IMG/VR virus record: IMGVR_UViG_2869947659_000006
Origin: a virus
Lineage: Duplodnaviria; Heunggongvirae; Uroviricota; Caudoviricetes
Length of the DNA: 31,837 bases
Reading direction: 5' to 3' (one strand)
Part shown: in pieces, positions 2,488-21,835 of the stretch
How the letters are laid out: each line of letters starts with the position of its first letter
Numbering within the stretch: position 1 is the first letter of the stretch
The notes under the pieces: model-generated
The model's database searches: none
The model's input: only the letters and a program-made list of their open reading frames with translations
What the model was told of the DNA's origin: nothing
Translations under genes and position numbers: made by a program

Positions 2488-4137
2488 ATGTTAGTCAAGA
2501 AAAATAAAAATTATAGTTTATATTTTTTAATTACAAATAATCAACAGATATCTGATTCTGGTAATTATATAAAAATAGTCCCATCAAGAAGCGATTGGAA
2601 TGATTTTGGATATTTGAGTAGAGTCGAAATATCTATTTTTAATAAAAAAGAGTGTAAGGATATAATTTCACTGAATGGTTATATTGGTTTTTTGAATTCA
2701 GAGGAGGAACGAAATGGAAAAGCAGAACTGATAAGGCGAGTGAAGAAAAAGGAAGAATCTAATTTAAAGGATGAGGGGTTTAATGATTATTTTGTCATGC
2801 TTCAGGATATGAATAATTATCGAAGACTAGTAAGATTTTTTGGGGTGAATGAATCCAAATATATATTAAATTTCATTAATGATGTTGTTTCTAAGAAAAG
2901 TGACGCTAGTGCAGAGAATTTGAGGAAAAAAGCAATCTCTTCTGATATCTTTAATAAATCTTTCATTAGAGAGTCTGAGTCGTATTTTACTTTCAAAAAT
3001 GCAGGAACAGTTCTTTCCGGTATTCAATATGAGGAGTTGGGTAATTTATCACAGCACATCAAGATTAGCTATTCGAATAAAGTTAATGAAGAAGATGTAT
3101 CTTATGTTTTTAATTTTGATCACGAGCATGATTTACCAAAAAGAATTTCCATAATTATAGGCGAGAATGGTGTAGGAAAAAGCCAAACGCTTAGAGAAAT
3201 CGCATTGGCTGCGATTAAAGGAAAGGATAATTTGGTGGCTGTAGTTGATTCTAACGGTGTGAGCATTGAAGAACGAATTCAAATTAGTAGGCTCATTGCT
3301 TTTTCTCCAACAAATGAAAGTAAGTGTTCATTTCCAACCGATAAAAGAATAAAATCATTGATATGGTACAAAAGATTGACTTTAAATCGTGAATCAAAAT
3401 CCAAATTAAACTTGAATGATTTAATAGTGCAACTAGCGAGGAGTAACGACGCTATCGGCTATAATCAAAGGTGGAATATATTTGTTGATGCACTGAGTGT
3501 TCTAAATAGTAACAACGATTTAGTAATCAAATGTGGCGGTGAAAATTCACCATTTGTTAAATTAAATGAGCTTAATTCTCGAGGCGAAGAATCTAGACTA
3601 TCATTATATTCTGAAATTATTCTCTCTGGCGAGCCTTTGAGGCTTATTGAAAATAAATGTTACCCTTTGAGTAGTGGGGAAATATCGTTTATTAAGTTTT
3701 GTGTACAAGTCTGTTTGTATATTGAGAATGGGACTCTTCTATTAATAGATGAGCCAGAAACACATCTCCATCCTTCATTTATTAATAAATTTATGGCATT
3801 GCTTGATAATTTATTAGAAAAGACAGGCTCTTCAGCTATCATAGCAACGCATTCGGTTTATCTTGTTCGGGAGGTTTTTAAGGAGCAAGTGACAATACTC
3901 AGAAGACGAGATGATGGGGTAATTGTTAGCGAAAAACCGAGATTGAGTACTTTTGGGGCGAATATAGGAAATATCTCATATTTTGTTTTCGGTGAGAGTG
4001 AACCAACTCAAATTTTAAATAAAGTAAAAAACAATATAATTGCAAAGAATATGTCTTGGGATGATGTTGAATCTAAATATAGCGAGGACTTATCACTTAA
4101 TGTATTAACTGCGTTGAGAAATGAAATGGGCAATTGA
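2488..4137 (+). CDS. ABC-type/AAA_21-like ATPase (549 aa) with an ~210-aa N-terminal domain of unknown function; candidate defence ATPase (PtuA-like)
   Basis: Walker A GENGVGKS, signature-like LSSGE, Walker B LLLIDEPETHLHP, H-loop IIATHS. Strongly AT-rich (about 18% G+C in a hand-counted 60-nt stretch, versus about 58% in a phage structural gene). Confidence 0.8.
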   Translation: MLVKKNKNYSLYFLITNNQQISDSGNYIKIVPSRSDWNDFGYLSRVEISIFNKKECKDIISLNGYIGFLNSEEERNGKAELIRRVKKKEESNLKDEGFNDYFVMLQDMNNYRRLVRFFGVNESKYILNFINDVVSKKSDASAENLRKKAISSDIFNKSFIRESESYFTFKNAGTVLSGIQYEELGNLSQHIKISYSNKVNEEDVSYVFNFDHEHDLPKRISIIIGENGVGKSQTLREIALAAIKGKDNLVAVVDSNGVSIEERIQISRLIAFSPTNESKCSFPTDKRIKSLIWYKRLTLNRESKSKLNLNDLIVQLARSNDAIGYNQRWNIFVDALSVLNSNNDLVIKCGGENSPFVKLNELNSRGEESRLSLYSEIILSGEPLRLIENKCYPLSSGEISFIKFCVQVCLYIENGTLLLIDEPETHLHPSFINKFMALLDNLLEKTGSSAIIATHSVYLVREVFKEQVTILRRRDDGVIVSEKPRLSTFGANIGNISYFVFGESEPTQILNKVKNNIIAKNMSWDDVESKYSEDLSLNVLTALRNEMGN

Positions 4138-5002
4138 AATGAATAAATTAAAAAGACCTGTTTTTAAAGATTATTCTGCATTTAAAAAACTATCTGCAAA
4201 TAAGAGATTAAAACATCATTCTGTTCTGAATGGACAGGATACATTTATACTTAATGCATATAGATCGTACATAAAGAATAAAGGGTATCTTAATGTCAAT
4301 TCTTGTGGCGTATTGAGTAACAATATTGCTGAAGCTTTGAGATATTATTATAACAATCCCGCAAAGTGTTTATCTATAATTGATGATATAAGAGCAGCTA
4401 ATTCTAACTCTCTATGTCCAATGTGTGGTTCAATGCATAGCGGGACTTTGGATCATGTTTTACCCAAGGAAAACTATCCAGAATTTTCTTTATTCACTAA
4501 GAATTTGGTTCCTGCTTGCAAATGTAATACTTTCAAAAGTACTACTATAGCTAATTCTGCAGGCCATCGGATGCTGCATCCATATTTTGATAATATATTA
4601 AAACAAAGATTAATATGTGCTAATTTTTCTAAATTAGGGCGAACACCTACAATTGATGTAAAAATCATAATTGACCCAATGTCACCAGAATATAACAATG
4701 TTAAGTATCATCTTGATAATGTTGTTATCAAGAATAATATTAAGGGGTATTTGTCTGAACAATGGGAGTCGTTTTACTTATATCCTGAGCTTGTTATTAG
4801 AGGACTGAATAAGAGTCTTTCTACTTATAGCGATGTATATGAGTTGTTGACTCGCGAGTTGTTGCTGTTGGATGAAAAACATAAAGGTAAAAATAATTGG
4901 AATTCGGTTTTTGTAGCTGGGTTAATTCGACCTGATGTGATTAGGTGGATACTCTGTGAATTACATTTAGGTAACAGAAGTCCAGACGGTCGTCTCATAT
5001 GA
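4121..5002 (+). CDS. HNH endonuclease-family protein (293 aa); candidate nuclease partner (PtuB-like). Start could instead be the ATG at 4139.
   Basis: CPMCG...GTLDHVLPKENYP...NLVPACKCN is a CxxC...DH...N...CxCN HNH core. It overlaps the upstream ATPase stop by 17 nt and is AT-rich. Confidence 0.75.
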   Translation: MKWAIEMNKLKRPVFKDYSAFKKLSANKRLKHHSVLNGQDTFILNAYRSYIKNKGYLNVNSCGVLSNNIAEALRYYYNNPAKCLSIIDDIRAANSNSLCPMCGSMHSGTLDHVLPKENYPEFSLFTKNLVPACKCNTFKSTTIANSAGHRMLHPYFDNILKQRLICANFSKLGRTPTIDVKIIIDPMSPEYNNVKYHLDNVVIKNNIKGYLSEQWESFYLYPELVIRGLNKSLSTYSDVYELLTRELLLLDEKHKGKNNWNSVFVAGLIRPDVIRWILCELHLGNRSPDGRLI

Positions 5003-5108: not shown

Positions 5109-6143
5109 TTAAGTAGCTAGTTTATAACTATCAAATTTAACAATGTTCTCACTTACCAATTTATTTATTTCCATCATTCTTTTTTGTAACGGTATTAACT
5201 CGTTACGTACAAACACCAGGCTCGCCTTCTCCACATCCCCAAACCCCCCGACATTATTAGGCATAATCCCCATCATTTGCGGTGGCACACGATGCGCCGC
5301 CATCATGTCATCCCGGCTCACGTTCTTGATGTTCAGAAACTCATCCTTCGCCGCGACTTCTGACAACGGGATGATCTGAAGCCCGTCCTTTTTGCCGTTA
5401 GGCGAGTACATAAACAGATTGCGGAAGTTACCTGGTCCTTTGGCGCTTTTCATCGCATTGCGGAGGTTGTTCACATCCTCCTGGTTTTGCGCGGCATCGG
5501 TCATGTACATGATGAAGCCTGCATGACTGCCGTTAATGTAATACTATCGGCGGAACAGCGTGGCGGACTCGTTGAGCAGAGCTGACGGAATGGCAGAAAG
5601 GTAACCTGGCAGGCCGTAGATCTCTTGGTTGATGTCCGGTTCCATCAGATGAAAGATGCTTCCTTTCGTGAACTGATACGGCTGCGTGGTCATGCCGTAT
5701 TGCACAAACCAGTAGGTATCCAGGTCTAATCCGCGTCGGGTGTATTTTGCCAGAGCAGGCTCAAGAGCGATGACCTCTCCGAACCGGTTTGTGCGTTTCT
5801 CCAGGTAAGCGTTACCAAATACCAGATAATCCTGCACAAAACGTGAAAAAGCCTGCTGGCTGAGCAGCGGGTGAGGGATGTAGGTACTGATCAGAATGTT
5901 GCATTTCACCGCAATTGGTGAACTGTGATGCACGGCGGCGCGGAAGGTGCGCGCCAGTCCGTCAAAACTCACTGGCGGCTCATACCAGCGATCTGTCTGT
6001 ACGCATTCCACATAGTCCAGTAGTTCACGGCGGTCCAGAACCGGAACGGGATCGCCGAAGCTGAATGCTTCGGCTGAAGTCTGGTTTTTATGCTGGGTCT
6101 GTTTCGTCGCCGCAGCGCGGTTCTTCTTACTCTTTCCCATCAA
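5109..6143 (-). pseudogene. Q: Portal protein (P2 gpQ homolog) interrupted by an in-frame TAG at 5544-5546
   Basis: ORFs 5544..6143 and 5109..5510 are in the same frame (435 nt apart). The read-through sequence is ...ATLFRR*YYINGSHAGFIMYMTDAAQ... Confidence 0.85.
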
Positions 6144-7906
6144 AAAATCTCCACAATATTGCTGGTATTGGCGGACTCGCCCTGCAGCGGTTCGTTAAAC
6201 AGTGCGTGCATTGTTGCCCAAGCCAGATCGGCATGGCTGGCTTCTTCGCTGCGGCTGGCTTCATAGGTCGGGCGGTTGCCGCTGGCGGTGGTGGCGCGAC
6301 GGATTGCCATGAATGACTGCGCAATGTCGGTGTGCCCGGCGTCAAACTCAAGACGGCGGTGGCTGATAATGTCGTAGGCCTTGAGTACCAGGGCGTTTTT
6401 AACGTTGGGGTTGTAGACAAACTCCCGGACGGCAGGAAAAAACGCTTTCACGTTCTCGTAAACCCCGTGACCAACGCCGGTTGAGTCGATGCCGATATAG
6501 GTCACGTTGTACTGTTCAGTCAGTTTTTTGATGGCGTCAGCCTGGGCGCGAAAGTCCATTCCGCGCCACTGGTGACGCTCAAGAATGCGGAACTTACCGC
6601 CTGGCACGGCTGGCGGTGCCACCGCCACGCATCCGGCGCTGTCGCCGTTCTGCGTACCTTTTGCCGGGTCATAACCGATCCACACTTCGCGCCAGCCAAA
6701 CGGGCGCAGGGCCAGTGCATGAAAGTCGGTCCAGACTTCCCAGCTGTCCACCATGCACGCCTGCAATTCGCTGAGCGGGAACACGGACGCGAGATCGTCC
6801 ACGAACTCGCACATCAGCAGGTTCTGGTATTCGTCAGGGCTGTACTCCATGCGCAACTGGTCAAGGTCGAACAGGTTACAGGCGCCGCGCACCGCATCTT
6901 CCACGGTGACTATCTGGCGGTATTGCCCGTCTGCGCACAGCAGGCCGGGGGCCAGATTGCTGTGGGACAGGTCGATGTCCACCTTGTCAGCTTTGTTGCG
7001 CCCACGGTTGAACAGCGCACCGGACCAGAACGGATAAGCACTGTGGGTCAGACTGGATGGTGTGGAAAAATAGGTCTGCCGCCATTTCTTGTGAATAGCC
7101 ATACCGGAAGCCACTTTGCGTAGCTCCTGAAATTTCGGTATCCAGAAATATTCATCCAGATACAGGTTACCGTGATAACTCTGGGCAGTGCGGGCATTGG
7201 TGCCGAGGAAATACAGTGTGGCCCCGTTGGGAAGCACCATCGGATCGCCTTTCAGCTCCACCTCCACTTCTTTGGCAAAGTCGATGATGTACTGTTTGAA
7301 GACGTGGGCCTGTGCCTTACTGGCAGAAAGGAAAATCTGGTTACGTCCGGTAAGCAGGGCGTCAATCAGGGCTTCACGGGCAAAATAGAAGGTCGCGCCG
7401 ATCTGGCGTGACTTCAGCAGGTTGCGGATGCGGTTGGTTTTTCCGGCTTCCCACCAGTGGCGCTGGTAGTTGAACATGGAGGAATGGAAAATTTTTTCCA
7501 GCTTCTCAATCTGGTCATCGGTGAAAACATTCTTTTCAGGCTGACGGCGTGGGCCTTTGTTGCGGTTGGCGACGTTAGGGTTTAAGTCGGCTTCGTTGCC
7601 GCCATTGTTAAACTTGCCGATCCGCGCGTGGCGCTCAGACTGGCGCGCCAGCAGGTCAATCTCTTTGAAATCTTTCCCTTCTTTGTGCTCCTTCATGATG
7701 AGCTGGCAGTAGCGTGCGGCGGTGGTGAGCTGCATCTGATCCAGAGGCCCATAGTCACCCCACTTGTCGTGTTTTTTCCAGCTGTGAACGGTTGCAACTT
7801 TCTCGCCCAGCATTTCAGCAATGCGGGCTACGCGGTATCCCTGAAAGTACAGCAGCATGGCCTGCCGACGGGGATCGAGATCTGCGGGTGTCAGTGTGGT
7901 GTTCAT
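6140..7906 (-). CDS. P: Terminase large (ATPase) subunit, P2 gpP homolog
   Basis: 588 aa; lies upstream of the portal gene on the same strand, as in P2; ATG at 7904-7906. Confidence 0.9.
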   Translation of the reverse strand: MNTTLTPADLDPRRQAMLLYFQGYRVARIAEMLGEKVATVHSWKKHDKWGDYGPLDQMQLTTAARYCQLIMKEHKEGKDFKEIDLLARQSERHARIGKFNNGGNEADLNPNVANRNKGPRRQPEKNVFTDDQIEKLEKIFHSSMFNYQRHWWEAGKTNRIRNLLKSRQIGATFYFAREALIDALLTGRNQIFLSASKAQAHVFKQYIIDFAKEVEVELKGDPMVLPNGATLYFLGTNARTAQSYHGNLYLDEYFWIPKFQELRKVASGMAIHKKWRQTYFSTPSSLTHSAYPFWSGALFNRGRNKADKVDIDLSHSNLAPGLLCADGQYRQIVTVEDAVRGACNLFDLDQLRMEYSPDEYQNLLMCEFVDDLASVFPLSELQACMVDSWEVWTDFHALALRPFGWREVWIGYDPAKGTQNGDSAGCVAVAPPAVPGGKFRILERHQWRGMDFRAQADAIKKLTEQYNVTYIGIDSTGVGHGVYENVKAFFPAVREFVYNPNVKNALVLKAYDIISHRRLEFDAGHTDIAQSFMAIRRATTASGNRPTYEASRSEEASHADLAWATMHALFNEPLQGESANTSNIVEIF

Positions 7907-13853: not shown

Positions 13854-13931
13854 TTTTTATTTGTTTTCAATTGAGTGGTAATGCTGCCAACTTACTGATT
13901 TAGTGTATGATGGTGATTTTAAGGTGCTTGC

Positions 13932-14207
13932 GTGGCTTCCATTTCCATCAGATGTCCTTCCTGCTCCGCTACTGAAGGCGTGGTGCGTAACGGCAAAAGC
14001 ACTGCCGGACATCAGCGCTATCTCTGCTCTCATTGCCGTAAAACATGGCAACTACAGTTCACTTACACCGCCTCTCAGCCCGGTACGCACCAGAAAATCA
14101 TTGATATGGCCATGAATGGCGTCGGATGTCGCGCCAGTGCACGCATTATGGGCGTTGGCCTCAACACGGTTTTACGTCACTTAAAAAACTCAGGCCGCAG
14201 TCGGTAA
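13932..14207 (+). CDS. insA: IS1 InsA
   Basis: 91 aa, [23 protein letters not shown]... Confidence 0.9.
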
Positions 14208-14629
14208 CCTCGCGCATACAACCGGGCAGTGATGTGATTGTCTGCGCTGAAATGGACGAACAGTGGGGCTACGTCGGTGCTAAATCACGTCAGCGCTGGC
14301 TGTTTTACGCGTATGACAGGATACGGAGGACGGTTGTGGCGCACGTCTTCGGTGAACGCACTCTGGCCACACTGGAGCGTCTTCTGAGCCTGCTGTCGGC
14401 CTTTGAGGTCGTGGTATGGATGACGGATGGCTGGCCGCTGTATGAATCACGCCTGAAGGGAAAGCTGCACGTTATCAGCAAGCGTTACACTCAGCGCATT
14501 GAGCGACATAATCTGAATCTGAGACAACATCTGGCAAGGCTGGGACGGAAGTCACTGTCGTTCTCAAAATCGGTGGAGCTGCATGACAAGGTCATCGGGC
14601 ATTATCTGAACATAAAACACTATCAGTAA
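14126..14629 (+). CDS. insB: IS1 InsB (made as an InsAB' fusion by -1 frameshift at the A6C motif near 14186)
   Basis: 167-aa ORF overlapping insA; TTAAAAAACTC slippery motif. Confidence 0.85.
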
Positions 14630-14639
14630 GTTGGAGTCA

Positions 14640-15653
14640 TTACCCAATTGAGTTAGATATAGATAGGAATGTGTCCCCTATTTCTATAGATAGTTGTTTA
14701 ATTAAATTCATGAAAATTAAATTCTCTTCGTTGCAGTCATTTTTCAGTAGACAGCACGTTGATTGAGTAAGACTAAGGGCTGTAGCATGTGCAGGGTCAA
14801 CTAATCCGAAATTACTTGGACCTATGTTGATGACGTTCTTCAGGTGATGGGGTAGTGACAAGCTATTAGTGATTGTTTTTATATTTACATGGATGTTTTG
14901 GCATGCCCATTTAAAATATGGGCGCATGTGATCTAATTTAACTTCTTTTTCAATTGATTTAAAGCTAGCTTTGTGTTTCTTATCAGTTAAAAATGGTGTG
15001 GCCCAACCATATTGCGAATCAAAACTTCTGCCATATGTTTTAATGGCTTTATCGAACAAGTCTGTTAATTCTCTGGCCTCTTCATTACTGGGCCCTTTCT
15101 CTTGAAGCCTGCTTTCATACTTTTTATGTGACATCATTAGATAATAGCTATCATAAATTTCATGTGCTAAAAATATTTCTGAGCATTTAGGACCATGCTT
15201 GTTGATGAAATGAAGTGTTACATTTGTTTCATGCAGTGCTCTCCATCTTGCATGGGCTGCGTCAGGAAATCCATTTTTTAATAGACATAAAATCTCGTTA
15301 GAAATTGCACATGCCTTTGCGTGTAATCTAATTAGTAATTGCAAATGGTTGTTTGTGTCGGTGTCTTTATCTTGTTGTAAGCTTGTACTATATTTAGAAC
15401 CTTGATTAATACATAACTCTAACAACAACTCTAATAATCCAAAACCATCTCTCCAAATATTAATATGTCTTTTTATGAAATTTTGATGTTCTTGTTCATT
15501 TTGGGCCAGTAATTCTGCTTTTTTTTCTTTAAATTCCGACATGTATTCATTTGCTTTGAAGTCTATGAACTCCCAGTATAGCTTTTCAAAATTTTCTCTG
15601 GTTGCATCGGGAAGACTGTTTTTATTTGAGCTTAACCATTCTTTAAAATCCAT
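14640..15653 (-). CDS. AT-rich cargo protein of unknown function (337 aa) at the P2 S/V (orf30) position; 3' end altered by IS1
   Basis: About 38% G+C in a hand-counted 60-nt stretch. Convergent with S. A possible HEPN-like R-x4-H motif (RWRALH) is a weak hint only. Confidence 0.7.
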   Translation of the reverse strand: MDFKEWLSSNKNSLPDATRENFEKLYWEFIDFKANEYMSEFKEKKAELLAQNEQEHQNFIKRHINIWRDGFGLLELLLELCINQGSKYSTSLQQDKDTDTNNHLQLLIRLHAKACAISNEILCLLKNGFPDAAHARWRALHETNVTLHFINKHGPKCSEIFLAHEIYDSYYLMMSHKKYESRLQEKGPSNEEARELTDLFDKAIKTYGRSFDSQYGWATPFLTDKKHKASFKSIEKEVKLDHMRPYFKWACQNIHVNIKTITNSLSLPHHLKNVINIGPSNFGLVDPAHATALSLTQSTCCLLKNDCNEENLIFMNLIKQLSIEIGDTFLSISNSIG

Positions 15654-15667
15654 TGTGTTCCCCTATT

Positions 15668-15685
15668 TGTACCATGTTTTATACA
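15668..15685. promoter_or_regulatory. Ogr-type TGT-N12-ACA dyad in the 78-bp divergent region between the cargo gene and V
   Basis: TGTaccatgttttatACA, centred about 56 bp upstream of the V start codon. Confidence 0.35.
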
Positions 15686-15731
15686 ACGAACTGTAAGCGA
15701 TTATATGGTTTTTTTCATTCATATTTAATAT

Positions 15732-16310
15732 ATGGACAAAAATCTAACAGAAATCATGCGCCTTATCACCAACCTGATCCGCACTGGGGTAGTCACCGAA
15801 GTGGACAGGACAAACTGGCTTTGCCGGGTGAAAACGGGCGACCTTGAAACCAACTGGATCAGCTGGCTGACGCTGCGTGCCGGGAATGCCCGGACATGGT
15901 GGCGACCATCGGAAGGTGAGCAGGTGGTGCTGCTGAGTATGGGCGGTAATCTGGAAACAGCTTTTGCGCTGCCCGCCATCTATTCGAATCAGTTCGCACC
16001 ACCGTCGACGTCGGCGGACGCCTGCGTGACAGAACATCCTGACGGTGGCTGGTTTGAATACGAACCTGCCACCGGGCGCTGGTATGTCAGGGGCATCAAA
16101 TCCATGGTCATTGAGGCTGCCGATAACATCACCCTGAAAACCAGTGAGTTTGTGCTGGAGGCTGAGTGCACGCGTATTAACAGCGAAGTGGTGGTCAATG
16201 GTGGCGTTACTCAGGGCGGCGGAGCGATGAGTTCTAACGGGATCGTGGTTGATGCGCATCAGCATACTGGCGTCCTGAAAGGCGGCGATACAACCGGAGG
16301 CCCGGTATGA
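15732..16310 (+). CDS. V: Baseplate spike protein, P2 gpV homolog
   Basis: 192 aa; matches P2 V (TNWISWLTLRAGNARTWW.PSEGEQV). Confidence 0.9.
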   Translation: MDKNLTEIMRLITNLIRTGVVTEVDRTNWLCRVKTGDLETNWISWLTLRAGNARTWWRPSEGEQVVLLSMGGNLETAFALPAIYSNQFAPPSTSADACVTEHPDGGWFEYEPATGRWYVRGIKSMVIEAADNITLKTSEFVLEAECTRINSEVVVNGGVTQGGGAMSSNGIVVDAHQHTGVLKGGDTTGGPV

Positions 16311-16666
16311 CGCTTTATAGCGGGATGAACAATACCAGCGGTAAAGCCATTACTGATATTGACCATCTGCGCCAGTCGGTGCGGGACATTTTGCTGACGC
16401 CGCAGGGTAGCCGCATTGCCCGTCGGGAATATGGTTCCCTGCTGTCGGCACTGATAGACCAGCCACAAAATCCGGCATTACGCCTGCAGGTCATGTCGGC
16501 AGTGTATGTGGCGCTGAGTCGCTGGGAGCCACGGCTGACGCTGTATTCCATCACCATTAACAGCAATTTTGACGGTTCAATGGTGGTGGGACTGACCGGG
16601 CGGCGTAATAACGGTGTGCCTGTTTCCCTTTCCGTATCAACAGGAGCAGAGAATGGCAGTGATTGA
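16307..16666 (+). CDS. W: Baseplate protein, P2 gpW homolog
   Basis: 119 aa; ATGA overlap with the V stop. Confidence 0.85.
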   Translation: MTLYSGMNNTSGKAITDIDHLRQSVRDILLTPQGSRIARREYGSLLSALIDQPQNPALRLQVMSAVYVALSRWEPRLTLYSITINSNFDGSMVVGLTGRRNNGVPVSLSVSTGAENGSD

Positions 16667-17561
16667 CCTTTCGCAGTTGCCTGCGCCGCAGATTGTCGAT
16701 GTGCCGGACTTTGAGACGTTGCTTGCCGAACGCAAGGCCGAATTTGTTGCGCTTCATCCGAAAGATGAGCAGGAAGCCGTGATCCGCACGCTGGAACTGG
16801 AATCTGAACCCGTCACCAAATTGCTGCAGGAGAACGCTTACCGTGAGTTGCTTCTGCGCCAGCGCATTAACGAAGCCGCGCAGGCGGTGATGGTGGCTTA
16901 CGCGATGGGCGGCGATCTTGACCAGCTCGCTGCCAACTACAACGTGAAACGCCTGACGGTGACGCCTGCTGATAATGACGCTGTGCCACCCGTTGCGGCT
17001 GTGATGGAAAGCGATGAAGCGTTACGCCTGCGTGTGCCCGCAGCCTTTGAAGGGCTTTCTGTTGCGGGGCCAACTGCCGCTTATGAATTTCATGCCCGAA
17101 GCGCCGACGGTCGGGTGGCGGATGCCAGTGCAACCAGTCCGGCACCTGCAGAGGTGGTACTGACTGTCCTGAGCCGTGAAGGCGACGGAACAGCAGAAAA
17201 AGATTTGCTGGATGTGGTGGAGAAAGCACTGAACAGTGAGAATGTCCGCCCGGTGGCTGACCGTCTGACGGTTCGCAGCGCAGAAATCATCCCGTACCGT
17301 GTGGAAGCCACCATTTTTCTCTATCCGGGGCCGGAAGCAGAGCCGGTAATGGCAGCGGCAAAAGCCAGCCTGCAGAAATACATCGCCAGTCAGACGCGGC
17401 TTGGTCGGGATATTCGCCGTAGCGCCATCTTTGCCGCCCTGCATGTTGAGGGTGTGCAGCGTGTGGAGCTGGCTTCGCCGCTGGCGGATGTGGTTTTGAA
17501 CAAAACGCAGGCGGCATCATGTACGGAGTGGAGCGTGACCAACGGGGGAACGGATGAATAG
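16653..17561 (+). CDS. J: Baseplate protein, P2 gpJ homolog
   Basis: Start MAVIDLSQLPAPQIV... after AGGAG. Confidence 0.9.
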   Translation: MAVIDLSQLPAPQIVDVPDFETLLAERKAEFVALHPKDEQEAVIRTLELESEPVTKLLQENAYRELLLRQRINEAAQAVMVAYAMGGDLDQLAANYNVKRLTVTPADNDAVPPVAAVMESDEALRLRVPAAFEGLSVAGPTAAYEFHARSADGRVADASATSPAPAEVVLTVLSREGDGTAEKDLLDVVEKALNSENVRPVADRLTVRSAEIIPYRVEATIFLYPGPEAEPVMAAAKASLQKYIASQTRLGRDIRRSAIFAALHVEGVQRVELASPLADVVLNKTQAASCTEWSVTNGGTDE

Positions 17562-18159
17562 TCTGCTGCCATCGGGGTCAACTTCACTGGAGCGCCGACT
17601 GGCGCAAACGTGCAGCGGGATTTCTGATCTGCAGGTGCCGCTGCGTGACTTGTGGAATCCGGCTACCTGCCCGGTCAGCTTCCTGCCTTATCTCGCCTGG
17701 GCGTTCTCTGTGGATCGCTGGGACGAGGGCTGGACGGAAAGCGTCAAACGACAGGTGGTGAAGGATGCTTTTTATATTCATCAGCATAAAGGAACCACCA
17801 GTGCCGTGCGGCGGGTGGTGGAGCCGTTCGGCTTCCTGATCCGCATTATTGAGTGGTGGCAGACCGGAGAAACACCGGGTACGTTTCGCCTGGATATCGG
17901 CGTGCAGGACCAGGGCATCACTGAAGATACCTATCTGGAACTTGAGCGACTGATAAGCGATGCCAAACCATGTAGCCGTCACATGATCGGCATGTCCATC
18001 AATCTGCAGACCAGCGGCCCACATTGGGTGGGAGCCGCCAGCTATCTTGGCGAAGAAATCACGATCTATCCGTATATCAACGAAACAATTATTTCCGGCG
18101 GCACCGCGCATGAAGGCGGGGCGGTCCATGTTATTGACACAATGAGAGTGAATCCATGA
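17554..18159 (+). CDS. I: Baseplate protein, P2 gpI homolog
   Basis: 201 aa; position and similarity. Confidence 0.9.
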   Translation: MNSLLPSGSTSLERRLAQTCSGISDLQVPLRDLWNPATCPVSFLPYLAWAFSVDRWDEGWTESVKRQVVKDAFYIHQHKGTTSAVRRVVEPFGFLIRIIEWWQTGETPGTFRLDIGVQDQGITEDTYLELERLISDAKPCSRHMIGMSINLQTSGPHWVGAASYLGEEITIYPYINETIISGGTAHEGGAVHVIDTMRVNP

Positions 18160-19697
18160 GCACAAAATTTTATACCCTGCTGACGGATATTGGCGCGGCG
18201 AAACTTGCCAGCGCCGCCGCGCTCGGTGTGCCTTTAAAAATTACCCATATGGCGGTGGGCGATGGTGGCGGAACATTGCCGACGCCGGACGCAAAGCAGA
18301 GTGCACTGGTAAATGAGAAACGCCGGGCTGCGCTGAATATGCTCTATATCGACCCGCAGAACAGCAGCCTGATTATTGCTGAACAGGTGATCCCTGAAAA
18401 CGAGGGCGGTTGGTGGATACGTGAAGTGGGCCTGTTTGATGAGTCCGGGGCATTGATTGCCGTGGGAAACTGCCCGGAAAGCTATAAGCCGCAACTGGCT
18501 GAAGGCAGCGGGCGTACCTAGACCGTGCGCATGGTGCTGATTACCAGCAGCACGGACAATATCACCCTGAAAATCGACCCTGCCGTAGTGCTGGCAACCC
18601 GCAAGTATGTGGATGATAAGGTACTGGAGCTGAAGGTGTACGTGGATGATCAGATGGCAAAACATCTTGCAGCACCGGACCCGCATTCACAGTATGCACC
18701 CAAAGAAAGTCCTACGTTTACCGGGACACCCAAAGCGCCAACGCCAGCGGCGGGGAATAACACCACGCAGGTTGCGACCACCGCGTTTGTTCAGGCGGCA
18801 CTGACGGCTCTTATTAATGGTGCGCCAGCCACGCTGGACACGCTGAAAGAAATTGCCGCAGCCATAAACAATGACCCGAAATTCAGTACCACCATTAACA
18901 ATGCGCTGGCACTGAAAGCGCCGCTGTCGAGTCCGGCACTCACCGGAACGCCAACAGCACCTACTGCGGCACAGTCGGTCAACAATACACAGATTGCCAC
19001 CACGGCATTTGTGAAATCGGCGATTGCGGCAATGGTGGGTTCTGCACCTGCGGCACTGGATACACTGAACGAACTGGCGGCGGCACTGGGGAATGATCCG
19101 AACTTTGCCACGACAATGCTTAATGCGCTGTCAGGTAAACAACCGCTGGACAATACGCTTACCAATTTGAGTGGAAAGGATGTAGCTGGTCTTCTCACAT
19201 ACCTTGGTTTGGGAGAAGGCTCTGCATTACCTGTTGGTGTGCCTGTTCCGTGGCCTTCAGCCACTCCGCCGACAGGCTGGCTGAAATGCAATGGTGCGGC
19301 TTTTTCTGCTGAAGAATACCCGGAACTGGCAAAGGCTTACCCGACAAATAAATTGCCTGATTTACGCGGTGAGTTTATTCGTGGCTGGGATGACGGACGT
19401 GGAGTGGATAACGGAAGGGGATTATTAACGCTTCAGGACGGTGCGATTGTCAGTCATAACCACTATTGGGGAATCTGGACTTCACGAACTAACGACCAGA
19501 CTCTGGAAAGTTTTACAGGCACCACGATTTTAAAACAAATCACGCCCCTGTCTCCGGCCATTGACTTCGATAATTACCCAATTCCCAACCCGGCTATTAC
19601 AGAGGGTGGTGTTGTTGCGGCAACGACTAAACCTGCAGGTGCGAATGAAACACGCCCACGAAATGTCGCTTTTAACTATATTGTGAGGGCTGCATAA
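18156..19697 (+). pseudogene. H: Tail fibre protein (P2 gpH homolog) with an in-frame TAG at 18519-18521; C-terminal tail-collar-type receptor-binding part lies inside the invertible segment
   Basis: ORFs 18156..18521 and 18525..19697 are in the same frame. P2 H reads AEGSGRWQTCRM; this window reads AEGSGRT*TVRM. Confidence 0.8.
19192..19217. repeat. Left crossover site of the invertible tail-fibre segment (gix/hix-like 26-bp site)
   Basis: TTCTCACATACC-TT-GGTTTGGGAGAA; 14 bp identical to the reverse complement of the site at 21046-21071. Confidence 0.55.
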
Positions 19698-20299
19698 TGA
19701 ATAACGCAGAATTAAACAGTGAATTAATTGCCACTATGGCAGGAGAAATTACTGTTTATAACTTTGATGTCATGAGTCGGGAATATATTTCAGCTTCAAC
19801 TGAATATCTTGCTATTGGTGTCGGCATTCCGGCATATTCCTGTTTAGATGCCCCAGGCGCATACAAAGCTGGTTATGCAATCTGCCGATCTGCAGATTTT
19901 AACTCATGGGAATATGTGCCAGACCATCGCGGTGAAATCGTCTTTAGCACCGAAACAGGAGAATCAAAAGAAATCACAGTTCCGGGTGATTACCCTGATA
20001 ATACAACCACTATCGCCCCGTTAACGCCATACGATAAATGGGATGGTGAGAAATGGGTGGCGGATACCGAAGCACAGCATAGCGCCGCAGTAGATGCAGC
20101 AGAAGCACAGCGCCAGTCACTGATTGATGCTGCAATGGCTTCCATTAGTCTGATTCAGCTGAAATTACAGGCCGGACGGAAGTTGACGCAGGCAGAAACC
20201 ACCCGACTTAACGCCGTGTTGGATTACATTGACGCGGTGGCGGCAACAGATACCAGCACCGCGCCGGATGTCATCTGGCCTGAACTGCCGGAGGCGTAG
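19697..20299 (+). CDS. G: Tail fibre assembly chaperone (P2 gpG / Tfa-like)
   Basis: 200 aa; lies downstream of H. Confidence 0.85.
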   Translation: MNNAELNSELIATMAGEITVYNFDVMSREYISASTEYLAIGVGIPAYSCLDAPGAYKAGYAICRSADFNSWEYVPDHRGEIVFSTETGESKEITVPGDYPDNTTTIAPLTPYDKWDGEKWVADTEAQHSAAVDAAEAQRQSLIDAAMASISLIQLKLQAGRKLTQAETTRLNAVLDYIDAVAATDTSTAPDVIWPELPEA

Positions 20300-20708
20300 G
20301 CCATTCAATATCTGGAGCACTGGAGGTATCAATCAGTTCCAGTGCGTCCAGATAATCCAGCCACAAATTATATTGCGCCAGTTCCTCACCTTTCAGACGA
20401 CCAATAGCGGCTTTACCGGGCCATTGTTTACTGTTCATGTATTCGTTGGCCTGATTAAGCAATAATTGCCTTTCTGATTCTGCCTGTTGAATAAGTTCTT
20501 CATATGATGGTGGAGGTATTAGTGCCCATGTGGGTAATCCATTTTTTCCTGCAACACGAATTTTGTCATCTGGGGGCGTATTGATTGCAAATTCATTATA
20601 AACATCATCACTGACAGCCAGAGCATCATCTGGCCATGAATTTGCATTAATGTAATCATCCTTAAGCGCAGGATTCACAAAAATGTTTAAAGATGGACTA
20701 TAAAACAT
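20271..20708 (-). CDS. Alternative tail fibre assembly chaperone (Tfa') of the inverted orientation
   Basis: 145 aa; C-terminus ...DIEWPTPPA parallels the gpG C-terminus ...DVIWPELPEA; convergent 3' overlap with G. Confidence 0.8.
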   Translation of the reverse strand: MFYSPSLNIFVNPALKDDYINANSWPDDALAVSDDVYNEFAINTPPDDKIRVAGKNGLPTWALIPPPSYEELIQQAESERQLLLNQANEYMNSKQWPGKAAIGRLKGEELAQYNLWLDYLDALELIDTSSAPDIEWPTPPAVQAR

Positions 20709-20709
20709 A

Positions 20710-21045
20710 TTAAACCCCTATAGCGATATAACGACCTAATACAGCATTTGCAGCAGTCGCTATGCTTGAAAAACCGCGGAACTGATTTGATGTAATTGCA
20801 GAAGCCGACAGGATTCCTGCGCCTGAAGGTGTATGCCCCACATGACTAACTATCATCCCATAACATGCTGACGGAAAGGCAAAAGGAAAATCATTAAGAT
20901 ATCCTGCATCTTCACCACCAGACCCACCAAATCTCGCCTGCCCCCACTGAATAATCAGTGTTCTCCGGGAACCTGAAATAATTAACTGAATCGTTACATA
21001 CCCATTCAGGCCAATGACACCCGATGCAGTGCCAGCCAGAGATAA
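20710..21045 (-). CDS. Alternative tail fibre C-terminal segment (Sv'-like), with no start codon of its own; expressed only after inversion fuses it to the constant part of H
   Basis: The ORF runs into the crossover site and encodes ...FLNVGLGELS, matching the H junction LTYLGLGEG. Confidence 0.65.
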   Translation of the reverse strand, partial: LSLAGTASGVIGLNGYVTIQLIISGSRRTLIIQWGQARFGGSGGEDAGYLNDFPFAFPSACYGMIVSHVGHTPSGAGILSASAITSNQFRGFSSIATAANAVLGRYIAIGV

Positions 21046-21071
21046 TTCTCCCAAACCAACGTTTAAGAAAA
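21046..21071. repeat. Right crossover site of the invertible segment
   Basis: TTCTCCCAAACC-AA-CGTTTAAGAAAA; resembles gix (TTCCTGTAAACCGAGGTTTTGGATAA). Confidence 0.55.
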
Positions 21072-21126
21072 TGCAGAGATAATGGCTAACTGGCATCATC
21101 CCCGGTTTTTATTCAGGGGATTGATC

Positions 21127-21693
21127 ATGCTTATTGGCTATGTACGCGTGTCAACAAATGACCAGAACACCGATTTGCAACGTAATGCACTGAACTGCGC
21201 GGGATGTGAGCGGATTTTTGAGGATAAAATCAGTGGCACTAAGCCCGACAGACCGGGGCTTAAAAAACTGCTCAGGACACTATCGGCAGGAGACACGCTG
21301 GTTGTCTGGAAGCTGGACAGACTGGGACGCAGTATGCGGCATCTTGTTACGCTGATAGAAGAGTTGCGCCAGCGTGGTGTGAATTTCCGAAGCCTGACTG
21401 ACAGTATTGATACCAGTACCCCAATGGGCCGTTTCTTTTTTCACGTCATGGGGGCTCTGGCTGAAATGGAACGTGAACTGATAGTTGAACGTACCAGAGC
21501 AGGGCTGGCTGCAGCTCGTGCCAAAGGCAGAGTAGGTGGACGCCGTCCTAAGTTGACCACCGAACAGTGGGCACAGATTGGACGTTTACTCGAGGCCGGA
21601 GAATCAAGACAGCGTATTGCACTGATTTTTGATGTGGGCGTTTCTACCATTTATAGAAAATTTCCGGCGAATGAGAGCAATGAATCGCCCTGA
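21127..21693 (+). CDS. Serine-recombinase DNA invertase (Gin/Hin/Cin/Pin family)
   Basis: MLIGYVRVSTNDQNTDLQ... with the catalytic Ser motif; C-terminal helix-turn-helix. Confidence 0.9.
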   Translation: MLIGYVRVSTNDQNTDLQRNALNCAGCERIFEDKISGTKPDRPGLKKLLRTLSAGDTLVVWKLDRLGRSMRHLVTLIEELRQRGVNFRSLTDSIDTSTPMGRFFFHVMGALAEMERELIVERTRAGLAAARAKGRVGGRRPKLTTEQWAQIGRLLEAGESRQRIALIFDVGVSTIYRKFPANESNESP

Positions 21694-21741
21694 GTCAGTA
21701 TTATTTTGATTTTTCCTGTAAGCGGACAAATACCGTCATTT

Positions 21742-21759
21742 TGTGTGAATAACGACACA
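21742..21759. promoter_or_regulatory. Ogr-type late promoter site (TGT-N12-ACA) upstream of FI
   Basis: TGTgtgaataacgacACA, centred about 85 bp upstream of the FI ATG. Confidence 0.4.
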
Positions 21760-21835
21760 ACTGCGCTTAGCTGTTTGTCAGGCACAATCACTTCAACATA
21801 GGGCGAAGCCTAATCCAATCAGGAGGTTCGCCACT

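Follow-up and report, generated by a model that had tools for sequence, protein, structure and literature searches.

Is the 1.85-kb segment downstream of the tail-fibre gene H in this P2-like prophage an invertible host-range switch, and what can such a switch still accomplish when the fibre gene that it serves is broken? We address this question for a locus in a window of 31,837 nt, that is, the whole stretch of DNA that was analysed. Overall, we consider it very likely, with a probability of roughly 90%, that the locus is a Pin/Cin/Gin-type inversion switch for tail-fibre (host-range) variation within a P2-like prophage tail module, that its H gene has been killed by an amber codon, and that the prophage is otherwise defective. 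The type of switch is well known, invertible fibre segments in P2-like prophages have been published, and the locus adds nothing new in this respect.

The genes surrounding the segment constitute a P2-like (Peduoviridae) tail module. They carry P2-family domains and follow the order V-W-J-I-H-(chaperone)...FI-FII-E-E'-T-U-D-ogr, as read from the annotation of a 99.9%-identical prophage in E. coli UPEC-245U (L001), the Pfam families of the genes in CP026766.1, and the P2 record. The original prediction placed the switch in a P2-type tail module at the position of Z/fun, and comparison with P2 agrees: the P2 record gives the order H-G-fun(Z)-FI, and the place of the non-essential fun(Z) is taken in the window by the second cassette and the invertase. 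P2 itself shares the tail module around the switch but has a fixed H, a single chaperone (G), and no invertase. No nucleotide-level match to P2 was found across positions 18100-21800.

The segment is bounded by an inverted repeat of 26 nt, the two copies of which are 81% complementary. The left crossover site lies at 19192..19217 (+ strand; TTCTCACATACC-TT-GGTTTGGGAGAA) and encodes ...LTYLGLGE, and the right crossover site lies at 21046..21071 (+ strand; TTCTCCCAAACC-AA-CGTTTAAGAAAA) and is 1 nt off the pixR site of e14. Both had been described as gix-like, and they align with gix, cix, and pix from the reference records over the conserved AAACC-NN-GGTTT core. The inner arm of the window sites is exactly that of pix. 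The central dinucleotide TT is common to the two sites in opposite orientation, reading TT on the + strand at the left and AA on the + strand at the right; the locus thus features the two imperfectly palindromic, inverted 26-bp sites with the same central dinucleotide that characterize Din systems. When a degenerate pattern derived from gix, cix, and pix was scanned across the 31.8-kb window and 100 shuffles, these two sites were the only matches in the window (0.00 expected). No third site, which would allow multi-inversion as in the three-site P2-like locus of E2348/69, was found within the window.

Between the sites lie two opposed cassettes, each comprised of a fibre C-terminus and a chaperone. 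The C-terminus now joined to H, Sv (19218..19697, + strand), harbors a Collar domain (PF07484, E 3e-15) and is followed by a TfaE-like chaperone of 200 aa (19697..20299, + strand; Caudo_TAP, E 7e-32). The alternative C-terminus, Sv' (20710..21045, - strand), is silent in the present orientation and features a gp53-like_C domain (PF21882, E 1e-12); its chaperone has 145 aa (20271..20708, - strand; Caudo_TAP, E 9e-33). The Pfam assignments, Collar versus gp53-like_C and two Caudo_TAP proteins, therefore bear out the expectation of two alternative tips, each with a chaperone of its own. The Sv cassette has a close counterpart in e14, with 93% nucleotide identity to stfE at 19192-19410 and 87% nucleotide identity between the chaperone gene and tfaE. 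Both orientations fuse in frame to the constant part of H, as seen in the translation and, for H-Sv', after an in-silico flip, and the fused proteins of 513 aa and 465 aa are annotated in relatives. For example, GCA_021890535.1 carries the same segment at 99.8% identity in flipped orientation, with an intact 465-aa H-Sv'.

Adjoining the segment is an intact serine DNA invertase of 188 aa (21127..21693, + strand), as was also predicted. It combines an N-terminal catalytic domain (Resolvase, E 3e-53) with a C-terminal helix-turn-helix (HTH_7, E 1e-15), the architecture of a Din-system recombinase, and it matches the Gin structures 3uj3/4m6f over residues 1-184 (E 2e-92). Identity is 85% to PinE, 77% to Cin, and 74% to Gin, the catalytic Ser9 is invariant, and the protein belongs to the Gin/Cin/Pin family. 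It carries His106 and Met114; both residues are wild-type, and Fis-independent mutants map to these two positions. A presumed Fis-dependent recombinational enhancer occupies the 5' end of the gene (21145..21216, + strand), proposed from homology since it aligns with the annotated enhancer of P1 cin, which has the same location in the gene. Identity in this region is 78%, a modest excess over the 68% across the rest of the gene, and the block TCAACAAATGA is invariant in all four compared invertase genes. Synonymous conservation is likewise raised in codons 1-12, where 6 of 10 codons are invariant versus about 10% elsewhere, although these numbers are small.

Together, these components suggest the following mechanism. 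The serine invertase would pair the two 26-bp sites, and Fis bound to the candidate enhancer would assist, a dependence that we propose by analogy with Gin, Hin, and Cin. Cleavage is predicted at the central TT/AA dinucleotide, after which the 1.85-kb segment would flip. Because the crossover falls inside the LGLGE codons, each orientation joins one of two receptor-binding C-termini in frame to the constant N-terminus of H, and it also puts that tip's own chaperone gene directly downstream.

Inversion of the locus is evident in close relatives. For E. coli ATCC 8739, two assemblies agree throughout a stretch of 6,702 bp except for an exact inversion with its endpoints inside the sites, and in strain 13TMH22 the chromosomal copy and a 36-kb circular copy differ by an exact flip over 6,697 bp. 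The left site sequence of the window recurs as an inversion endpoint in both strains and the right one in 13TMH22, the sites of which are identical to those of the window and the invertase of which differs at 4 of 188 residues. In a set of 5,426 complete E. coli RefSeq genomes, the locus is present at a coverage of at least 80% in the orientation of the window in 65 and flipped in 45. The original prediction had called for a search for both orientations and an alignment of the crossover core; both orientations occur in close relatives, and the core is conserved.

The lineage that carries the amber codon is represented by a sole complete genome, which shows one orientation. This would fit a frozen switch, in which sites and invertase look intact but no longer recombine, either through lost expression or through a substitution, leaving a fixed fossil. 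One candidate substitution is at residue 40 of the invertase, which is Pro in the window, whereas PinE, Cin, Gin, and the two relatives with demonstrated inversion have Ser, Ala, or Thr at this position (Ser40 in both relatives). We nevertheless consider a frozen switch unlikely. The invertase reading frame is intact and matches its counterpart in the intact prophage L001 without any difference, the recombining sites of 13TMH22 have the same sequence as both sites of the window, and two Logan short-read contigs of the amber lineage stop exactly at 19217, the last base that both orientations share. Such contig ends fit mixed orientations. We do not regard them as demonstrating that inversion continues in this lineage, since the assembly would break in the same way if the genome contained a second prophage with the same end of the constant region. 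In a further assembly (L013), the break lies elsewhere, 44 nt upstream of the site. No lineage-specific SNP near the junction was found that could tag a flipped copy of the amber lineage, and the nearest intact relative is identical inside the segment.

The amber codon itself lies upstream of the switch, in the constant part of H, as the original prediction stated. The P2 H-type tail-fibre gene runs for its N-terminal 121 codons (18156..18521, + strand; PF12571, E 1e-50, profile positions 1-121 of 150) to an in-frame TAG at 18519..18521 (+ strand), with the translation reading '...GSGRT*TVRMVL...'. The remaining constant region, Sc (18522..19203, + strand), continues in frame to the crossover point, and its positions 18700-19150 share 71% identity with the repeat region of the constant part of P1 S. 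A single Pfam domain is split by the stop, with PF12571 profile positions 1-121 before it and 124-150 after it. Position 18519 is T in the window and C in L001, which encodes an intact H of 513 aa, as is usual in its protein cluster. A second relative, L011, likewise has C at this position and differs from the window by just 4 SNPs in 8,387 nt. Comparison with these two prophages gives CAG (Gln) as the ancestral codon. The single change from CAG to TAG at codon 122 cuts the protein inside its baseplate-attachment domain, and the resulting truncation at residue 121 applies in both orientations, so that neither gives a functional fibre. Within the group of host-range switches that includes Mu G, P1 C, and e14 P, the copy in the window counts as pseudogenised.

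Decay extends well beyond H. The portal gene (5109..6143, - strand) contains an internal nonsense codon, translated as '...LFRR*YYING...', with a SNP at 5546 relative to L001. An IS1 element (13877..14644, + strand) that is absent from L001 is recognizable from its InsA/InsB ORFs and a 9-bp target duplication, at which the BLAST blocks overlap by 9 bp, and the early region of the prophage has been replaced by IS elements. In sister genomes, the fibre region has been lost by an IS1-adjacent deletion. The whole P2-like prophage is a dead remnant, and the window offers a natural example of stepwise decay, from nonsense mutations and an IS1 insertion to, in the sisters, the IS1-adjacent deletion. 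Since the fibre is dead and the prophage defective, the switch is a relic, and it is probably a relic that is still able to flip, without phenotypic output, like the P segment of the defective e14 in E. coli K-12.

Alternatively, with the fibre dead and no particles made, the host could be keeping the invertase as a free-standing recombinase that flips a meaningless segment or acts in trans on other invertible segments of the chromosome, the local segment being incidental. Prophage invertases can act in trans on Salmonella flagellar phase variation, and invertases of this family are known to cross-react. The gene is intact in the window, and a copy of 188 aa is also still annotated in sister genomes from which the left site and half of the segment are missing. 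If true, such retention would represent an early domestication of a phage invertase in an IS-rich, probably Shigella-type genome; besides the IS content, the absence of this record from the 5,426 complete E. coli RefSeq genomes suggests a genome of that kind. We regard it as improbable, however, because the prophage acquired its lesions only very recently, with 4 SNPs in 8.4 kb between the window and an intact relative, and selection is thereby not needed to account for an intact invertase. In addition, a search confined to the window found no other target sites there.

It is very improbable that the amber codon is bypassed, whether by a suppressor tRNA, near-cognate read-through, or re-initiation at GTG 18525 or ATG 18531, such that the fibre is usable and the switch matters. 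An amber suppressor that inserts Gln would regenerate the wild-type protein exactly, since the codon was originally CAG, and the two potential start codons lie only 1-3 codons past the stop. Against this, no tRNA gene was found in the window, no Shine-Dalgarno-like sequence was found just upstream of 18525/18531, and a re-initiated product would be without most of the N-terminal PF12571 domain. Furthermore, the prophage remnant is dead through several lesions, of which the broken H is just one, and suppression alone therefore gives no phage; with a nonsense codon in the portal gene and the early region gone, there would be no virion anyway. The deletion of the whole fibre region in sister genomes likewise argues against selection to keep the fibre.

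Finally, it is scarcely credible that the stop arose in sequencing or assembly and that H is in fact intact: only one base is involved in a comparison with prophages that are otherwise near-identical, but the same 121-aa fragment is encoded in a complete genome (GenBank CP026766.1, identical to the window over 12,366 nt) and on contigs from separately assembled read sets, including SRR8186634 and ERR200311, with one such contig found in 6 samples and another in ERR200311. The amber at 18519-18521 is real.

For annotation, we propose that the locus be labelled a pseudogenised P-pin-type host-range switch in a P2-like prophage remnant and that the fragments of H not be called two separate tail proteins. 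An invertible segment can outlast the gene that it serves. Invertible segments also fragment short-read assemblies, and their orientation differs between assemblies of the same strain, which should not be taken for a strain difference.

Among known systems, the Mu G segment was the original point of comparison. Its logic and layout are those of the window, with Sc outside, a segment containing Sv-U and U'-Sv', and the invertase on the right-hand side, but the likeness can be refined. The Mu segment measures 3 kb, its two gix sites are perfect repeats with the core TC rather than the TT of the window, pix, and cix, and its fibre domains differ; sites and invertase of the window are closest to those of e14 P-pin. 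The P1 C segment resembles the window in its TT core, its alternative S C-termini with U chaperones, and its invertase. It is 4.2 kb long, however, cin lies on the other side relative to the fibre gene, and P1 is not P2-like.

The gene order of the window (I, constant part of H, segment, invertase, FI) is that of invertible loci in P2-like prophages of E. coli E2348/69, in Escherichia phages 500465-1 and Cartapus, and in the prophages of ATCC 8739 and 13TMH22, which share 93-96% nucleotide identity with the window over the constant part and the invertase. In the P2-like prophages of E2348/69, inversion has been shown experimentally, and some P2-like loci feature three sites and three alternative tips (PMC4272514). 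All of these listed relatives have an intact H, whereas the window copy has the amber codon and resides in a prophage remnant.

The closest invertase is PinE of the P segment in e14, a defective lambdoid prophage of E. coli K-12. The crossover sites are near-identical to those of the window, with TT as the core in both, and the segments measure 1,854 bp from centre to centre in the window and 1,827 bp in e14. One cassette (the stfE start and tfaE) is common to both, while the Sv'/Tfa' cassette has no nucleotide-level match to stfP/tfaP of e14. The e14 element is lambdoid and the window P2-like, and the constant region is a different gene. Like the prophage in the window, e14 is defective and its fibre gene is pseudogenised, and its P segment still inverts there (PMC4272514).

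Inversion of the segment between 19192-19217 and 21046-21071 is directly visible among relatives of this prophage. When 5,426 complete E. coli genomes were searched with the window and flipped versions at a coverage of at least 80%, the locus was oriented as in the window in 65 and flipped in 45. Between separate assemblies of one strain, ATCC 8739, the only difference over 6,702 bp is an exact inversion of the segment, whose endpoints fall inside both sites, in the 13 bases that run inward from the central TT. Similarly, in strain 13TMH22 the same exact inversion is all that distinguishes the chromosomal prophage from a 36-kb circular record over 6,697 bp; both sites match those of the window letter for letter, and its invertase departs from that of the window at 4 of 188 residues. 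These two comparisons settle inversion at these sites in relatives. The window's own segment, at 99.8% identity, also occurs flipped in GCA_021890535.1, where it completes an intact 465-aa fusion of the tail-fibre gene H with the alternative C-terminus (Sv'). The pattern that would count against an invertible segment, only one orientation and sites without the conserved core, is not what was found: both orientations occur and the core is conserved.

Strain 13TMH22 harbors the same P2-like phage as a chromosomal prophage and as the circular record, deposited as a plasmid (NZ_CP019256.1, NZ_CP019257.1). This double occurrence probably means that the phage genome was excised or replicating, or else that the assembly duplicated it.

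A repeat finder gives the two arms a length of 26 nt, 81% complementarity and a spacing of 1,828 nt, and by repeat statistics alone the pair stands little above other chance inverted repeats of the same output. Their specificity lies in the arm sequence rather than the repeat score. A degenerate pattern derived from the Mu, P1 and e14 crossover sites, TTNTCNNAAACSNNSGTTTNNGANAA (up to 2 mismatches allowed), matches only two places in the entire 31.8-kb window, namely the two arms, and has zero matches in 100 shuffles. Reference sites were taken from the records of Mu, the E. coli K-12 element e14 and P1 (with cix and enhancer annotated), and were compared from outer to inner arm with the central dinucleotide between. 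The left site of the window reads TTCTCACATACC-TT-GGTTTGGGAGAA and the right site TTTTCTTAAACG-TT-GGTTTGGGAGAA; those of e14 read CTCTCGAAAACC-TT-GGTTTGGGAGAA (left) and TTTTCATAAACG-TT-GGTTTGGGAGAA (right), those of P1 CAATCCTAAACC-TT-GGTTTAAGAGAA (cixL) and TTATCCAATACC-TT-GGTTTAAGAGAA (cixR), and both Mu sites TTATCCAAAACC-TC-GGTTTACAGGAA. The window sites thus share the conserved core of gix, cix and pix and carry the same asymmetric central dinucleotide in inverted orientation, the arrangement required for inversion. The original prediction of an inverted 26-bp pair stands, with the refinement that the sites resemble pix of e14 more than gix.

Within the segment, two alternative fibre C-termini are each accompanied by a chaperone, as predicted. 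H is encoded on the plus strand from 18156, is interrupted by a TAG at 18519-18521 and stays in frame beyond it up to 19697, ending in the current C-terminus, Sv, with a Collar domain (Pfam). It is followed by a 200-aa chaperone gene (19697-20299, plus strand). On the minus strand lie a 145-aa chaperone gene (20271-20708) and the Sv' open reading frame (20710-21099), which has a gp53-like_C domain and reads out through the right site; both chaperones match Caudo_TAP. An in-silico flip from one central dinucleotide to the other yields an in-frame fusion, ...LTYLGLGE-LSLAGTAS...IAIGV*, with the 145-aa chaperone gene directly after it. Parts of the locus also resemble e14: stfE is matched at 93% identity by the start of Sv, tfaE at 87% by the gene for the 200-aa chaperone, and pinE at 80% by the right site together with the invertase gene. 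For the second cassette, e14 offers no match at the nucleotide level.

The constant part of H at 18700-19150 has 71% nucleotide identity to the b1/b2 repeat region in the constant part of the P1 S fibre gene, a further sign that unrelated phages have exchanged parts in mosaic fashion.

The predicted serine invertase adjoins the segment as a 188-aa recombinase (21127-21693, plus strand) with Resolvase and HTH_7 domains and 85%, 77% and 74% identity to PinE, Cin and Gin, respectively. It matches Gin crystal structures over residues 1-184 (E 2e-92) and retains the catalytic serine. The stretch at 21145-21216, homologous to the annotated P1 enhancer, has 78% DNA identity to P1 versus 68% for the rest of the gene, and synonymous positions in codons 1-12 are unusually invariant across four invertase genes. 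This conservation is compatible with a putative enhancer, short of proof.

The amber codon predicted in the constant part of H is also borne out. A prophage of E. coli UPEC-245U, 99.9% identical to the window and at the same chromosomal place adjoining ybjL, encodes an uninterrupted H of 513 aa. Base-by-base comparison places a C at 18519 in UPEC-245U and a T in the window, changing CAG (Gln) to TAG; a still closer relative (4 SNPs in 8,387 nt) likewise has the C. Within its protein cluster, H is as a rule the intact 513-aa form. Truncated products occur in independently assembled short-read contigs and in a single complete genome, CP026766.1, which matches the window without a difference over 12,366 nt. 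Because relatives retain the intact gene and the truncated form recurs in these separate assemblies, the stop is real, recent and lineage-specific. It cuts H at residue 121, within the domain used at the N-terminus by P2-type fibres, and splits the Phage_tail_fib profile into positions 1-121 before and 124-150 after. Since the stop lies upstream of the crossover, H is truncated in either orientation. No tRNA gene was found in the window, and the GTG and ATG that come after the stop lack a ribosome-binding sequence in front of them.

Short-read contigs of the amber lineage stop exactly at 19217, the last base common to both orientations. These ends are consistent with a population of mixed orientation; a second prophage sharing sequence at 19217 could produce the same break.

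Other lesions accompany the amber codon. Relative to the intact relative, an IS1 with a 9-bp target duplication is inserted at 13877-14644, and a SNP at 5546 creates a stop within the portal gene (5109-6143, minus strand), the second nonsense mutation of the prophage. At the left end (1-2252), the early (immunity/replication) region appears to have been replaced by an IS orfA (1-339), a fragment of a phage integrase N-terminal domain (614-1069) and IS3-family transposase orfB (1009-1914) and orfA (1950-2252). Two sister genomes, CP162080.1 and CP026731.1, share the IS1 and lack 14647-20198. This 5.55-kb deletion begins at the end of the IS1 and takes out DUF5677, V, W, J, I, H, the left site, Sv and the greater part of the Sv chaperone gene; one crossover site and the invertase remain. 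In a further record, L017, IS1 is joined instead to the portal/terminase region (window 5402-7062). Given the IS1, the portal mutation, the early-region loss and the sister deletion, the amber codon is one step in ordinary prophage erosion.

The DUF5677 gene (14640-15653, on the opposite, minus strand) lies between S-type and V-type genes and may be a further cargo gene; PADLOC gave no match for it. IS1, between it and the S-type gene, clips its last codons (337 aa versus 339 aa in the intact relative). Two cargo genes occupy the P2 old/tin position (2488-5002), one for an AAA ATPase of 549 aa and one for a 293-aa protein that carries an HNH endonuclease annotation in the relative. The pair matches PDC-M01 A/B, a candidate defence system in PADLOC (E 3e-55 and 1e-33), and more weakly Septu PtuA.

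Overall, the original observation is confirmed and its interpretation supported. Three refinements apply: the switch belongs to the pix rather than the gix type, the stop arose when CAG became TAG, and the prophage as a whole is defective. Placement of the extra cassette and invertase at the fun(Z) position is correct, because the P2 record has H, G, fun(Z) and FI in that order. Isolated P2-like phages such as Escherichia phages 500465-1 and Cartapus carry the same module with an annotated DNA invertase (GenBank). Invertible fibre segments, including a three-site version, were found and confirmed in P2-like prophages of E. coli E2348/69, and the P segment of the defective e14 element in K-12 was shown to flip (Goldberg et al. 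2014, PMC4272514). The locus is thus a pseudogenised copy of a known kind of system, already published for P2-like prophages.
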